Assembly (NCBI GenBank): GCA_016871815.1
Contig: VHBT01000003.1
Location: forward strand, 14,317 to 78,316
Source of the DNA: Candidatus Babelota bacterium
GTDB lineage: Bacteria; Babelota; Babeliae; Babelales; GCA-2401785
Length of the DNA: 64,000 nt
Direction: 5' to 3'
How positions within the stretch are numbered: the first letter of the stretch is position 1; the number at the start of each line of letters is the position of its first letter. The position numbers and the translations under genes are program-made. Below are positions 58,207-61,500 of the stretch, piece after piece. A model generated the notes under the pieces. It saw only the letters and a list, made by a program, of their open reading frames with translations. It ran no database searches and had not been told where the DNA came from.

Positions 58207-61200
58207 TCATTCAGAAACCCAAGCACATGGAGTTCCCACAAAATATCTAATTGCCGAATTCAACATGTTAGATTTTCTATTACCTTTCAATGCATCGTGT
58301 GGATCTTTTACCACATCACGAACATGTCTCATGTAATTGATGATTCTCCAACAATTTAAATGAGGCAATCGTGTTTTGATATACGAGAACAATGCTGTCG
58401 CACTTCGATGTTGTCCTCCCATACAATGAACAAGCACCTGCCCTCCACTGCTCAACGTTGCATCCATAGAAGCAAATATTTTTTCACTGTATGGCAAAAA
58501 TTGAGTATGAAAATTTGATATATCATCTTTCTCATCACATGGACAATAAATAAATCGTTGTGCATTTCTTCCTGTGAAGATGTCAAATTCTTTACCGCCA
58601 GAACCATTAAACTTCCCATACGATCTAAATGTGTTTCTTATTAAAGCAATATCAGTTGCTCGTTCGCTTGTATATGCAGCAACACACAAAATAAGATCAA
58701 AATTCGTACCATCACTAAGTGCGCCAGGAAGACTATCAAATCCGGGATGACCTATCAACGCAACACCATCCTCTGATCCAGTGAGCCACATTTGTTCATT
58801 TAATCTGTTAATCTCAATGGTAGTCAATTTTCGTTTTTCTTCAAAAATTTTCGTTGTCGCATTATCATTTCCCAAAAACAAACCACTTCCCATATCTGCA
58901 AATGGCAAGTACATGCTGATATCGTAACCTACGTGCGTCGCCATTTTTGATTTCAAATTAGACCAATCCCCACGCTCAATCATTTCCCTCAACTTCTCAT
59001 CAGAAATTTCTTCAAACCCAGGTGCTGTAAAGTTTTTAATTTTCGTATTTATGTCTGCCAAGTAATCAGGAACTACCTCAGCCGTTGGATCAACCGCCGA
59101 AACTTCACTTCGTCGACCAACACCTGCGGCAGGATGAATCGCTCCGCCAGCACCACAACCAGGTGTACCTTCAAACCTAAGTGCACTTGCAGCAGCAAGG
59201 GCTAACGCTGGTGAAGGCGCCTTGCTACCCCAAGAACATCCAAGGTAATATTCAACAACACTTCTTAATGTCATGCCATAATATTGTATATTTTCCTGAC
59301 TTAACTCTTTCAAACTATTAATAGTTTTCACGCCTTTACGCTTACTTGCGCAGAGCGAAATCATATCACACATCACCCGACTATCGTTGCGACCTTCTAT
59401 ACCTGATAGTTTTGCTTGCTCGAACAAGTAGGCAACGGTGATTGCCAAGCTTCGGTTCACACCATCTATGCAGTGAATAATTACCGGTCGACCTAAGTCA
59501 AGAGCGTTCGTCATTAATTCAAAAACGCGATCTTTTTCAGGCAAGAATCTGGATACAAACTGATCTTCAGTTGCGTTTGAACTCTCTAAAAATGGACAAT
59601 AAATAAATGTAACACCATCTTTTTTAAACTCTGCGCAAAAAGGGTTTTGATCGCCTTGCTCAGGTGCAACTTTAGCAGCTCTCCATAGATTACGAAGCTC
59701 AATCATATCACGATGCTCTTGTCCACAGGGCCAATCAACAGGATGACCCTCCATTAGACACGCACAAACGTGACAATTTGCCTCATTACCAATCCGTTGA
59801 TCTAAATTACCAACAAATAAAACAACTGCCGGCTTTTGGGTCAAACCATATTTTCCAGGTACACCAGCTAGCGCAGCTTCATCTTGCGCAAGCCAATAAT
59901 CTCGCGTAAATTGCCATGTTCCAAGATATAAATTTCCAGCAATTTGATTGAGTTCCGAATAAGGCACAGTAAATCTAACATCTGCAAGGGTATTTAAAGC
60001 AGCTTGTCCTTGATTCATCAATTCAGCAAGTTGACCAAAGTTTGCTCTTTCAAAACCAAGGTCTTTATATTTTAAAGTGGTTGCAACTGCTTCTCCTTCA
60101 TATTGTACGGTACACGAGGATGTCTTCAAGCCTTCAATCGCTGTACGCAATTGAGATAGGAAAGGCACGACCACAGGGAGAGAAGCGCGACAAAGTGTAC
60201 ACGTTTGCGCAGATGGCTCGTTCACATAGGTGCACTTAGAACAGACTTTTCCTTCTGCTTCTTCTGCTCTAAGCCTTGCTCTTCTTGCTTCTATTTCTGC
60301 TCTAAGCCTTGCTCTTCTTGCTTCTCTTTCTGCTCTAAGCTTTGCTTGTCTTGCTTCTATTTCTGCTGCTAATCTTGCTTCTTCTGCTCTTCGCTTTTCT
60401 GCTGCTTCTTCTGCAGCTCTTTGTCTTTTTTCTTCAACTCTTCTTAGATCTTCTATAGCAGCTGCTTCTTGATCATTCGGATACGAAAAATATTCGATTT
60501 TTTCTGGCTCTGTTGGGAAAAAGAGGTTTGTAACATCATAAGAACCATAGCCTGGAAGCCTAAAAGCAAATAAAATTCTAGATTCGTTTAATACCAAACG
60601 GGCTGGCGCCATATTTTCTTGTGCAAGATTTTTTCCCGCAAGAGAAGCGGAATATTTTTGATGAATGAAAGCAATAATTGGTCTCCATTCTAAGGTATTA
60701 ACAGCAAAAGCATTTTTATATGTTTTATGTTTTGTAAGACGAAACCTATTTCCATTGACATACACAAAAAGCTCATCTTGTGTTTTATTTGCCTCAAAAT
60801 CTGCCACCGAAGTAATAACTGGAATTGCTTCTTCTGCTGCTAATCTTGCTTCTTCTGCTCTTTGTCTTTCTTGTCTTTCTTGTCTTTCTTTTCTTTGTTC
60901 TTCTGTGCCTAAACCAAAAAAATCTCTCGTATCTAATGAAAAGTCTCTTAAGATATTAACACCCACATACAAAGCAGTAGAAATACCACCAACCAATGCG
61001 GTAACCAATCCGGTTACTCCTAATTTTTTGGCAAGTGACCACGAAGCATCAGTAGCCTGCGCACTCGCGTCAACCAATGGCGCAACCCACGCAGGACACT
61101 CCGCTGCAGAATAGACCACAGCTTCATGCGCGCCTTTTGTATCAACTGAAAGCTGAATAACAACTGAATCAAATTCGTTTTCTGCAACAACTGCCAGAAC

Positions 61201-61500
61201 GGCTGGTTGTTTTGCTGCAAAAAGCAATCGCAGCTCGCTGGCAAGCTTGCTTTCGTTATTTTTTATACGTTGTACTAAATCATCTTTTTTGGTAAAAACC
61301 TTCAACCAGCGAATTTCTTCCGCCGAGACGGTCATTCTTTTTTGTACCAACGATGCTACATCGCCAGTCACGTGGACCGTTTGCACCTGTTTTGTAGAAA
61401 GCGCTGTCGTTTGCGCTCCGGGAACCAGTAACACCGGTTGTCCAATCACATTTGATGCCAAAAGAAGCATCAAACACATCATTTTTATTTTTGTATTCAT
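58207..61500 (-). CDS. Large signal-peptide/TM protein with two CX5R (dual-specificity/PTP-type) phosphatase domains, Arg/Glu/Ala coiled-coil repeats and a RanBP2/NZF-type zinc finger
   Basis: 1097 aa. Signal MNTKIKMMCLMLLLASNVIG and a TM segment LGVTGLVTALVGGISTALYVGVNIL. Repeats AEEARLAAE and (EARRARLRAEI)n. Zinc finger C-SK-C-TYV-N-EPSAQT-C-TL-C. Phosphatase P-loops VIIHCIDGVNRSLAITVAY (nt ~59452-59485) and VLVHCMGGQHRSATALFSY (nt ~58398-58440). Confidence 0.85.
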   Translation of the reverse strand: MNTKIKMMCLMLLLASNVIGQPVLLVPGAQTTALSTKQVQTVHVTGDVASLVQKRMTVSAEEIRWLKVFTKKDDLVQRIKNNESKLASELRLLFAAKQPAVLAVVAENEFDSVVIQLSVDTKGAHEAVVYSAAECPAWVAPLVDASAQATDASWSLAKKLGVTGLVTALVGGISTALYVGVNILRDFSLDTRDFFGLGTEEQRKERQERQERQRAEEARLAAEEAIPVITSVADFEANKTQDELFVYVNGNRFRLTKHKTYKNAFAVNTLEWRPIIAFIHQKYSASLAGKNLAQENMAPARLVLNESRILFAFRLPGYGSYDVTNLFFPTEPEKIEYFSYPNDQEAAAIEDLRRVEEKRQRAAEEAAEKRRAEEARLAAEIEARQAKLRAEREARRARLRAEIEARRARLRAEEAEGKVCSKCTYVNEPSAQTCTLCRASLPVVVPFLSQLRTAIEGLKTSSCTVQYEGEAVATTLKYKDLGFERANFGQLAELMNQGQAALNTLADVRFTVPYSELNQIAGNLYLGTWQFTRDYWLAQDEAALAGVPGKYGLTQKPAVVLFVGNLDQRIGNEANCHVCACLMEGHPVDWPCGQEHRDMIELRNLWRAAKVAPEQGDQNPFCAEFKKDGVTFIYCPFLESSNATEDQFVSRFLPEKDRVFELMTNALDLGRPVIIHCIDGVNRSLAITVAYLFEQAKLSGIEGRNDSRVMCDMISLCASKRKGVKTINSLKELSQENIQYYGMTLRSVVEYYLGCSWGSKAPSPALALAAASALRFEGTPGCGAGGAIHPAAGVGRRSEVSAVDPTAEVVPDYLADINTKIKNFTAPGFEEISDEKLREMIERGDWSNLKSKMATHVGYDISMYLPFADMGSGLFLGNDNATTKIFEEKRKLTTIEINRLNEQMWLTGSEDGVALIGHPGFDSLPGALSDGTNFDLILCVAAYTSERATDIALIRNTFRSYGKFNGSGGKEFDIFTGRNAQRFIYCPCDEKDDISNFHTQFLPYSEKIFASMDATLSSGGQVLVHCMGGQHRSATALFSYIKTRLPHLNCWRIINYMRHVRDVVKDPHDALKGNRKSNMLNSAIRYFVGTPCAWVSE
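60262..60393 (-). repeat. In-frame 33-nt tandem coding repeats (11-aa unit R-A-E-I-E-A-R-R-A-R-L) inside the 1097-aa gene
   Basis: On the plus strand, TTCTGCTCTAAGCCTTGCTCTTCTTGCTTCTAT is repeated about three times with point differences. The flanking GCTGCTAATCTTGCTTCTTCTGCTCT (AEEARLAAE) recurs at ~60835-60865. Confidence 0.85.

Follow-up and report, generated by a model that had tools for sequence, protein, structure and literature searches.

A stretch of 64,000 nucleotides (nt) from a Candidatus Dependentiae metagenome-assembled genome (MAG; assembly GCA_016871815.1, contig VHBT01000003.1, positions 14,317 to 78,316 of the forward strand; hereafter “the window”) encodes a 1097-amino-acid (aa) protein in which two dual-specificity phosphatase (DSP) modules follow a signal-peptide-like N-terminus, a family-specific N-terminal domain (N-domain), a weakly hydrophobic segment, charged helices, and an NZF-type zinc finger. 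The open reading frame (ORF; 58207–61500, minus strand) starts with ATG, contains no Ns, runs uninterrupted to a stop codon at 58207–58209, and holds in this single intact frame every feature that an earlier sequence-only reading had listed for it. On balance, we lean toward regarding the protein as a host-directed, Sec-exported, and tethered modular phosphatase of an obligate intracellular member of the Dependentiae, which would be recruited to ubiquitin; its export, ubiquitin binding, and catalysis are predicted. The Dependentiae (TM6) are widespread obligate protist parasites, for which hardly anything besides numbers of ankyrin-repeat proteins has been described about how they manipulate their hosts, and the locus offers a concrete effector candidate with a putative anchor, stalk, and ubiquitin reader, and two phosphatases.

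All features of the ORF described below lie on the minus strand. Module 1 (“type A”; aa 447–762, 59215–60162) consists of a helical N-extension and a DSP core with insertions, and carries the LYLG strand (aa 523–527), E639 (59584–59586), the P-loop HCIDGVNRS (aa 676–684, 59449–59475), and R721. The C-terminal module 2 (“type C”; aa 803–1097, 58210–59094) carries the corresponding LFLG strand (aa 873–877), D989, E990 (58531–58533), the P-loop HCMGGQHRS (aa 1025–1033, 58402–58428), and R1061. The modules are separated by a Gly/Ala-rich stretch (aa 763–802, 59095–59214), which by its composition is probably a flexible linker. Both P-loops had been named in the sequence-only reading, and as HCxxGxxRS loops they place the catalytic Cys at C677 and C1026. 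The two motifs are not a product of chance, because the pattern HC..G..R[ST] has an expectation of 1.8e-4 per protein of this composition, and among 20,000 shuffled sequences four contained it once and none twice. The claim of two separate phosphatase domains is borne out by the Pfam family DSPc (PF00782), which matches the whole protein in two stretches with 58.4 bits (gathering score 33.5) and the individual modules with E-values of 3.1e-7 (module 1) and 1.2e-7 (module 2). The modules are also paralogous (BLASTP E 5e-10, 23% identity), and since this paralogy spans ~300 aa, the repeated unit is about twice as long as a standard DSP domain.

An alignment of 13 family modules (A2) was used as a profile and for an AlphaFold2 prediction of module 2. 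Against PDB sequences, the profile matched DUSP10/MKP-5 (E 1.9e-14), followed by DUSP16, DUSP9, and VHR, in two aligned pieces, the LYLG strand and the catalytic core, with family-specific insertions between them. The model of module 2 (pLDDT 77.9, pTM 0.83) folds the N-extension as a family-specific helix pair. The prediction of a protein tyrosine phosphatase (PTP) fold had been set beforehand as the point on which the sequence-only reading could fail, and a Foldseek search of the model against the PDB returned the DUSP fold: the top 50 matches were essentially all of DUSP type (target-normalised TM-score 0.6–0.73), with DUSP28, DUSP14, STYX, DUSP10, DUSP5, and Slingshot-2 at the top. Both CX5R motifs lie in DSP domains, as judged for module 2 from the model and for module 1 from homology. 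The catalytic core is homologous to VH1-like DSPs (DUSP10/MKP-5, DUSP16, DUSP9, DUSP28, DUSP14, and VHR), with which it shares the HCxxGxxRS P-loop, the LYLG strand, the helix preceding the P-loop, and the downstream Arg. However, identity to these enzymes is only 10–17%, and the family module measures ~300 aa, with its helical N-extension and insertions of 60–110 aa, compared with ~150 aa in DUSPs. Its general-acid loop is longer and has a Glu in place of an Asp, and the residue preceding the catalytic Arg is Asn or His, not Ser.

No Pfam match to a rhodanese/CH2 domain, which docks mitogen-activated protein kinases (MAPKs), was found anywhere in the 1097-aa protein, and without a rhodanese/KIM domain the protein is MKP-like in its catalytic core but not an MKP. 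It is also not a classical tandem receptor PTP, because the family Y_phosphatase (PF00102) remained below its cut-off (20.2 bits versus 20.9) and covered only 29 residues around one P-loop. In the BFVD viral library, nearly all Foldseek matches of module 2 were giant-virus phosphatases of DSP/PTP type (E 1.6e-5 and weaker). The DSPs of Bodo saltans virus, Pandoravirus, and klosneuviruses have the same fold and occupy a similar niche of protist-host manipulation, but they are single-domain proteins of ~150–250 aa with 10–15% identity, and there is no sign of recent exchange. One insertion of module 1 contains a Cys/His cluster (NCHVCACLMEGHPVDWPCGQEH, aa 571–592, 59725–59790) that could bind metal; the cluster is missing from the type A modules of relatives.

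The columns that are invariant among the 13 aligned modules comprise the L and G of the LYLG strand, one Glu three residues after a Pro (Pro+3), the loop H-C-x2-G-x2-R-S, and the downstream Arg, and modules 1 and 2 keep every one of them. The loop of the general acid, to which the sequence-only reading had pointed as a check, gave a mixed result. The canonical Asp is not conserved, as module 2 reads CPCD-E (D989) and module 1 CPFL-E (L638), but an invariant Glu occupies Pro+3 in both (E639 and E990). Pro+3 is Glu in all module types of the family and is the sole acidic residue of the loop in several modules. In MKPs, the general-acid Asp stands at Pro+3, counted from the Pro at the end of a beta-strand (“LPATD” in DUSP10), and a D59A mutant structure of the DUSP10 chain is among the PDB matches. 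The general acid of the PTP superfamily has been described as “an Asp (or occasionally Glu)” (PMC9038691). Judged by the residues that they retain, the two modules are probably active and represent a divergent “PxxE” subtype.

The missing Asp also bears on a quite unlikely alternative, according to which the protein is host-directed but acts on non-protein substrates (phosphoinositides, inositol pyrophosphates, RNA 5′ ends, or glycans) or is a STYX-like, phospho-binding pseudophosphatase. The P-loops end in N-R-S or H-R-S, compared with the S-R-S typical of protein DUSPs, and Asn or His also precedes the Arg in RNA 5′-phosphatases (HCTHGxNRT) and PFA-DSPs (HCKRGKHRT), which work without a general acid. 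Relatives show weak Pfam matches to the families Rit1 DUSP-like and PTP-like phytase, and some of their modules are degenerate: Ser replaces the catalytic Cys in P0006 copy 1, and the Arg has become His or Val in P0014 and P0015. On the other hand, both modules of the protein studied here keep the Cys, the Arg, the P-loop Ser/Thr, and the invariant Glu, and their closest relatives in sequence and fold are protein DUSPs/MKPs. Their P-loops contain no Lys or Arg besides the catalytic Arg and include an acidic residue (D679; Glu in type A relatives), which would be unfavourable for polyanionic lipids or inositols. By comparison with the known P-loops of PTEN, myotubularins, and PFA-DSPs, the lack of extra basic residues and the presence of acidic ones favour protein substrates over phosphoinositide or inositol polyanions.

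A zinc finger (aa 418–442, 60175–60249) precedes module 1, with C420, C423, C434, and C437 in the spacing C-x2-C-x3-N-x6-C-x2-C (CSKCTYVNEPSAQTCTLC, aa 420–437). The sequence-only reading had assigned it to the RanBP2 type; the Cys4 finger is present but falls below the Pfam RanBP2 cut-off and instead belongs, by its sequence, to the NZF type. A phmmer search of aa 410–449 against PDB sequences matched TRABID NZF1 first (E 4.9e-5, 14 of 24 residues identical), in an alignment that takes in the C-T-Y motif and C-T-(L/M)-C-R-A. The matches that came next were almost all ubiquitin-binding NZFs, beginning with those of HOIP, HOIL-1L, Npl4, TAB2/TAB3, and Vps36, all of which bind ubiquitin. The ubiquitin contacts of NZFs are a T-(F/Y) that follows the second Cys and a hydrophobic residue located between Cys three and four; their counterparts in the finger, T424-Y425 and L436, line up with the T-Y and the M of TRABID NZF1, and ubiquitin binding is predicted. 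While the Cys4 spacing, the T-Y, and the hydrophobic residue between the last Cys pair are common to the known NZFs (TRABID NZF1, HOIP, HOIL-1L, TAB2/3, and Npl4), those are joined to a deubiquitinase, E3 ligase, or kinase adaptor, whereas this one is joined to phosphatases. The NZFs of TRABID recruit it to K29/K33-linked chains (PMC4822133).

Relatives of the protein carry further ubiquitin-related domains. Canonical W-x-C-x2-C-T NZF fingers with the Trp retained occur in P0007 and P0008/P0020, and in P0006, P0011, and P0018 a ubiquitin-like domain lies just past the hydrophobic segment (hhalign against ubiquitin: 91.5% probability, E 8.8e-7). In searches of PDB sequences, these ubiquitin-like segments matched mono-ubiquitin chains with E-values of 2e-5 to 4e-4. 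The eukaryote-like character already attributed to the protein is strengthened by the NZF-type finger and by the ubiquitin-like domains of its relatives.

The N-terminus resembles a Sec-type signal peptide (aa 1–21, 61438–61500; MNTKIK / MMCLMLLLASNVIG / Q), with a hydrophobic, signal-like stretch at aa 7–28. By inspection, the n-h-c organisation is visible in the ORF and conserved in relatives, and every relative bearing the N-domain has a Sec-like signal peptide. In an AlphaFold2 model covering aa 1–352, the N-domain (aa 29–160, 61021–61416) is predicted as a compact alpha/beta fold (pLDDT 80–95) with an ECP(A/E)W motif and measures ~130 aa. No Pfam family was found for the N-domain or elsewhere in the N-terminal half, and Foldseek found no significant structural neighbour of the N-terminal half in the PDB (best E 0.25). 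The next segment (aa 161–184, 60949–61020), previously taken for a transmembrane helix, is Gly/Ala/Thr-rich and of low model confidence (pLDDT 30–48). It is hydrophobic, but only marginally so (Kyte-Doolittle 1.72, summed Hessa ΔG +3.0 kcal/mol), and could be a tether or a weak transmembrane segment. Across the family, the corresponding segments have Kyte-Doolittle values of 1.4–1.8, summed Hessa ΔG mostly of +2 to +5 kcal/mol, and 37–68% G/A/S/T, with no consistent positive-inside bias. Because of this marginal hydrophobicity and the missing bias, the segment is considered a weak stop-transfer signal.

Between the hydrophobic segment and the finger lie two charged helical regions and a small domain. 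The first Glu/Arg/Gln-rich helix (aa 199–226, 60823–60906) is modelled as helical at aa 200–224. The second region, a Glu/Arg/Ala-rich helical spacer (aa 346–417, 60250–60465) recognised by its composition, contains a 33-nt (11-aa) tandem repeat in 3.7 copies (60262–60385) and would span ~11 nm as one continuous helix. The charged repeats described earlier as coiled coils are thus present as Glu/Arg/Ala-rich helical repeats, which may form either a coiled coil or a single alpha-helix. The Mid domain between them (aa 227–345, 60466–60822) is modelled with moderate confidence as beta-beta-beta-alpha-beta-beta-beta and is common only to this protein, P0006, and P0007. It was also considered as a divergent ubiquitin-like domain, but no such relationship was detectable (hhalign probability 1%, no PDB sequence match).

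The combination of domains is as unusual as had been supposed. An exhaustive phmmer search of aa 448–1097 against 1.84e9 representative proteins returned only 14, including the cluster of the protein itself and an unrelated classical triple DSP (P0017), and a scan of a genome-contig collection gave no relative of the full-length protein. The architecture of the family was defined by local iterative searches and Pfam scans. Nine members share the signal peptide, N-domain, and hydrophobic segment, and nearly all end in a type C DSP module (HCxxGxHRS), a type that in the family occurs exclusively at the C-terminus. The middle part is variable and draws on type A modules (HC(I/M)xGxNRS), type B modules (xCN(S/N)GxNRS), PP2C, NZF, Mid, Glu/Arg- or Ala-rich helices, and Gly/Ala linkers. 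PP2C domains were identified by Pfam in P0006 (120 bits) and P0007, with a weaker sign in P0005. The largest architecture is that of P0006 (L005:2452–10275; 2607 aa), with four DSP modules, two to three PP2C domains, and one ubiquitin-like domain, while the minimal members P0010, P0016, and P0020 have the N-domain and a single type C module, to which P0020 adds an NZF finger. The family is very rare and holds from one to about seven phosphatase modules per polypeptide. The MAG studied here also encodes a stand-alone type A module with a signal peptide (MBM3894490.1).

The gene of P0011 is syntenic with the phosphatase ORF, sharing KsgA, a ~385-aa protein, the array gene, and a cluster of Lon-like paralogues. 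The two proteins differ in their modules: P0011 consists of N-domain, ubiquitin-like domain, type B, and type C, whereas the protein studied here consists of N-domain, Glu/Arg-rich helix, Mid, Glu/Arg-rich helix, NZF, type A, and type C. In the fragment P0018, the N-domain is 76% identical to that of the protein studied here, yet a ubiquitin-like domain comes next. Module content turns over even between syntenic orthologues, in an arms-race-like evolution with rapid shuffling. P0006 and P0012 represent a second conserved locus, located beside a thioredoxin-reductase-like gene and a cluster with genes of the type II secretion system (T2SS). Conserved in two genomes (L005:11880–18555 and L002:18119–23480), the cluster encodes a MlaD/“Helical_needle”/Aq_493_lipo protein, several orphans, an N_methyl prepilin, a T2SSG pseudopilin, and T2SSF, and it may point to the way in which the proteins are exported.

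Two further DSPs were encountered in these searches. The metagenomic P0017 (575 aa) has a signal peptide and three tandem classical DSPs with HCxAGxGRT and the canonical PxxD general acid, and represents a second, independent tandem-DSP architecture. A tight profile of the type C module, run against the genome contigs, found only an unrelated stand-alone DSP of 195 aa in a Proteobacteria MAG (L004:7728–8315, plus strand; JAJYDF010000004.1). This DSP has the P-loop HCDGGAHRS and a CaaX-like C-terminus (...SCTCTLF), which suggests prenylation by a host, and its gene adjoins a toxin-antitoxin-like gene pair.

In the host-directed function that we favour, the Sec signal peptide would take the protein out of the bacterial cytoplasm, from where the conserved T2SS of the phylum or outer-membrane vesicles would carry it further. 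The N-domain and the weakly hydrophobic, Gly/Ala-rich segment would form a tether at the bacterium-host interface, either on the bacterial envelope or on a host or vacuolar membrane. The Glu/Arg-rich helices, recognised by composition, would act as a stalk of ~10 nm, the finger matching TRABID NZF1 would dock the protein on host ubiquitin or ubiquitin chains, and the two MKP-like DSP modules, with their DSP fold and catalytic residues, would dephosphorylate nearby host phosphoproteins. What is known of the phylum is compatible with such a route. Dependentiae are obligate intracellular protist parasites, and components of the T2SS belong to their core genome (PMC4776705). The cultured Chromulinavorax (C. 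destructans) replicates in the host cytoplasm and sheds outer-membrane vesicles, and signal peptides occur on 44% of its coding sequences and 78% of its ankyrin-repeat proteins (PMC6561590).

Several observations weigh against a host-directed phosphatase recruited to ubiquitin. Taken singly, the modules score just under the DSPc gathering score (30.7 bits for module 1 and 32.1 bits for module 2). The equivalence of E639/E990 to the catalytic Asp is plausible but uncertain, because the general-acid loop is 3–5 residues longer than that of DUSP10 and two HMMER alignments give differing registers. The finger scores 16.5 bits with Pfam RanBP2 (PF00641; cut-off 27), and the conserved Trp of NZFs is replaced by Lys418 (K418-V419-C420). 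Most relatives have no taxonomic label, and the T2SSF gene on the P0006 contig matched MAGs with the ambiguous labels “Campylobacterota bacterium” and “bacterium”. Secretion-system genes were not found in the 64-kb window, and the phosphatase gene is surrounded by housekeeping genes (Lon paralogues, KsgA), with a GC content like that of the window. Moreover, a signal peptide followed by one hydrophobic segment would, by the textbook, make this an inner-membrane protein of type I, with the C-terminal 900 aa remaining in the bacterial cytoplasm.

The main alternative, though unlikely, is a receptor-like bacterial signalling phosphatase with a cleaved signal peptide, the N-domain as periplasmic sensor, a true inner-membrane anchor, and modules acting on bacterial phosphoproteins in the cytoplasm. 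The standard rule for a signal peptide plus a single hydrophobic segment would give this N-out/C-in topology, and the gene is chromosomal, syntenic in two genomes, and of native GC content among housekeeping surroundings. PP2C and Cys-based phosphatases are known to serve bacterial signalling, and the layout is analogous to that of eukaryotic receptor PTPs with tandem D1–D2, which likewise have a signal peptide, an ectodomain, a hydrophobic segment, and two Cys-based phosphatases. The domains of receptor PTPs are classical PTP domains, whereas here, in a bacterium, both are of DSP type and both keep the catalytic residues. Against this alternative, the TRABID-like NZF and the ubiquitin-like domains of relatives lie on the phosphatase side, and no bacterial ligand is known for them. 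Besides being marginal, the hydrophobic segment shows no positive-inside bias, its C-terminal flank having a net charge of –4 in P0006, and module content varies between syntenic orthologues, unlike that of a conserved signalling enzyme. A bacterial signalling role is further disfavoured by the strong reduction of Dependentiae genomes (PMC6561590, PMC4776705) and by the 64-kb window, in which no protein kinase gene was found.

A broader proposal, to which we assign a fairly low probability, extends host-directed function to the family as a whole. Its members would be cross-modification “reader-eraser” effectors, composed of an anchored stalk, an NZF reader or ubiquitin-like mimic, and from two to seven or more DSP/PP2C modules. 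Host ubiquitin, whether deposited on the surface of the pathogen or part of ubiquitin-scaffolded kinase complexes, would recruit erasers of downstream phospho-signals, for which MAPK-type cascades, autophagy-receptor kinases, and phospho-ubiquitin are candidate targets. Under this proposal, the N-domain would serve for anchoring or export as a new module specific to the phylum, and the “PxxE” DSP module would constitute a new catalytic subfamily.

The public annotation conceals most of this architecture. The NCBI product (MBM3894215.1) comprises only aa 663–1097 (435 aa, 58207–59511) and starts at M663, which halves module 1 and hides the N-domain and the finger. The IMG/GEM gene call, by comparison, is the full-length 1097 aa, and the full-length ORF is supported because its N-terminal region recurs in nine independent relatives and module 1 has orthologous copies elsewhere. 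Public collections contain the identical protein, encoded on a contig of 93.8 kb, and the NCBI entries for the ORF's 90% cluster and for the neighbouring 134-aa gene bear the name Candidatus Dependentiae bacterium (locus tags FJ366_01305 and FJ366_01300). Upstream of the ORF, a 300-nt divergent intergenic region contains a sigma-70-like promoter match (TTGTCA-17-TATTAT, 61646–61674; 10/12 consensus positions), and a Shine-Dalgarno-like AAGGG stands 6–7 nt before the ATG. An intrinsic-terminator-like hairpin (58155–58180; 11-bp stem with eight GC pairs, followed by a T-run) lies 27 nt past the stop codon, and the gene therefore appears to be monocistronic. The GC content of the ORF (39%) is the same as that of the rest of the window (38–40%), which also holds an rRNA operon, tRNAs, and housekeeping genes.

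The 435-aa product would agree with a chimeric or mis-assembled ORF, and the Pfam family Tc-R-P (PF22785), which sums to 30.5 bits over the whole protein (cut-off 27), with a conflict-system toxin, i.e., a polymorphic-toxin DSP of the Tc-R-P/Swiss-Army-Knife type, but either explanation is very improbable. Independent assemblies (JGI, ENA, Logan, and NCBI) show the same N-domain-to-DSP architecture, and the ORF, at 39% GC, runs for 3.3 kb without a break and has its own promoter-like site and terminator. Taken per module, Tc-R-P reaches just 18.4 and 17.6 bits where DSPc, overlapping it, matches more strongly, and PTP-SAK (PF22784) reaches only 14.9 bits. PADLOC gave no genuine match, as its LmuB match falls on the biased ER/K helix, and the gene context offers no toxin-delivery or immunity genes, the neighbours matching no Pfam/NCBIfam family.

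The literature searched contained no earlier description of phosphatases or ubiquitin-related proteins from Dependentiae, nor of bacterial NZF effectors or tandem-DSP effectors. Also not described there are the ~300-aa PxxE module, its tandem and array arrangement with PP2C, its coupling to NZF or ubiquitin-like domains, and the fold-orphan N-domain. Bacterial CX5R effectors such as YopH, SptP, HopAO1, MptpB, and those of Legionella are single-domain proteins delivered by type III, type IV, or type VII secretion systems. They are alike in concept only, as pathogen CX5R phosphatases presumed to act on host phospho-signalling, whereas the protein studied here has a Sec signal peptide, two catalytic modules, an NZF, and an anchor domain, and its relatives have up to four DSP modules plus PP2C. 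The ankyrin-repeat effector candidates of Chromulinavorax and Babela belong to the same phylum and likewise have a Sec signal peptide followed by eukaryote-type domains, but they are interaction-domain proteins rather than a phosphatase array (PMC6561590). If the host-directed function is correct, a ubiquitin-guided phosphatase would be a new way in which a pathogen couples two host signalling codes, and the divergent PxxE DSP subfamily and a TRABID-like NZF outside eukaryotes would be new subjects of study. The fold-orphan N-domain may then mark exported or surface-tethered proteins in Dependentiae.

Among the neighbouring genes, a 381-aa orphan (61805–62950, plus strand) is transcribed divergently from the phosphatase ORF and has a signal peptide and an internal hydrophobic segment. 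It has a syntenic counterpart (385 aa) beside P0011 and matches no Pfam/NCBIfam family. With its signal peptide, ~150 aa, and hydrophobic segment it was considered as a second bearer of the N-domain, which was ruled out by an hhalign probability of 0.15%, and a hidden Markov model of the N-domain matched no other ORF in the window. Downstream of the phosphatase ORF, the gene for a 134-aa secreted protein ends in a hairpin (57576–57597, minus strand) near-identical to that at 58155–58180; both consist of the GC-rich GGGCCCGGAGAAATCCGGGCCC and a T-run and constitute a repeated terminator element.

Other parts of the window contain further gene groups. Five tandem Lon/AAA+ paralogues (45403–57550, plus strand), an unusual expansion for a reduced genome, comprise a canonical Lon of 817 aa, an AAA-only protein of 376 aa, an AAA+Lon_C protein of 586 aa, and two proteins with double AAA+Lon_C (910 and 1253 aa). 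The genome that encodes P0011 has the same cluster in synteny. Three large proteins of 733 aa (27940–30141, minus strand), 1014 aa (35464–38508, plus strand), and 1239 aa (38519–42238, plus strand) have the MutS domain V ATPase as their only Pfam match. Two of these are encoded in tandem and a HerA/DUF87 ATPase lies at 33698–35308, and together they could form a non-canonical MutS-like system. Two further candidate host-interaction genes of the window encode a protein with Sel1 repeats (13636–14568, minus strand), which are eukaryote-like and frequent among intracellular bacteria, and a protein of 755 aa (8808–11075, minus strand) that has an adhesive domain of pectate-lyase-like type.

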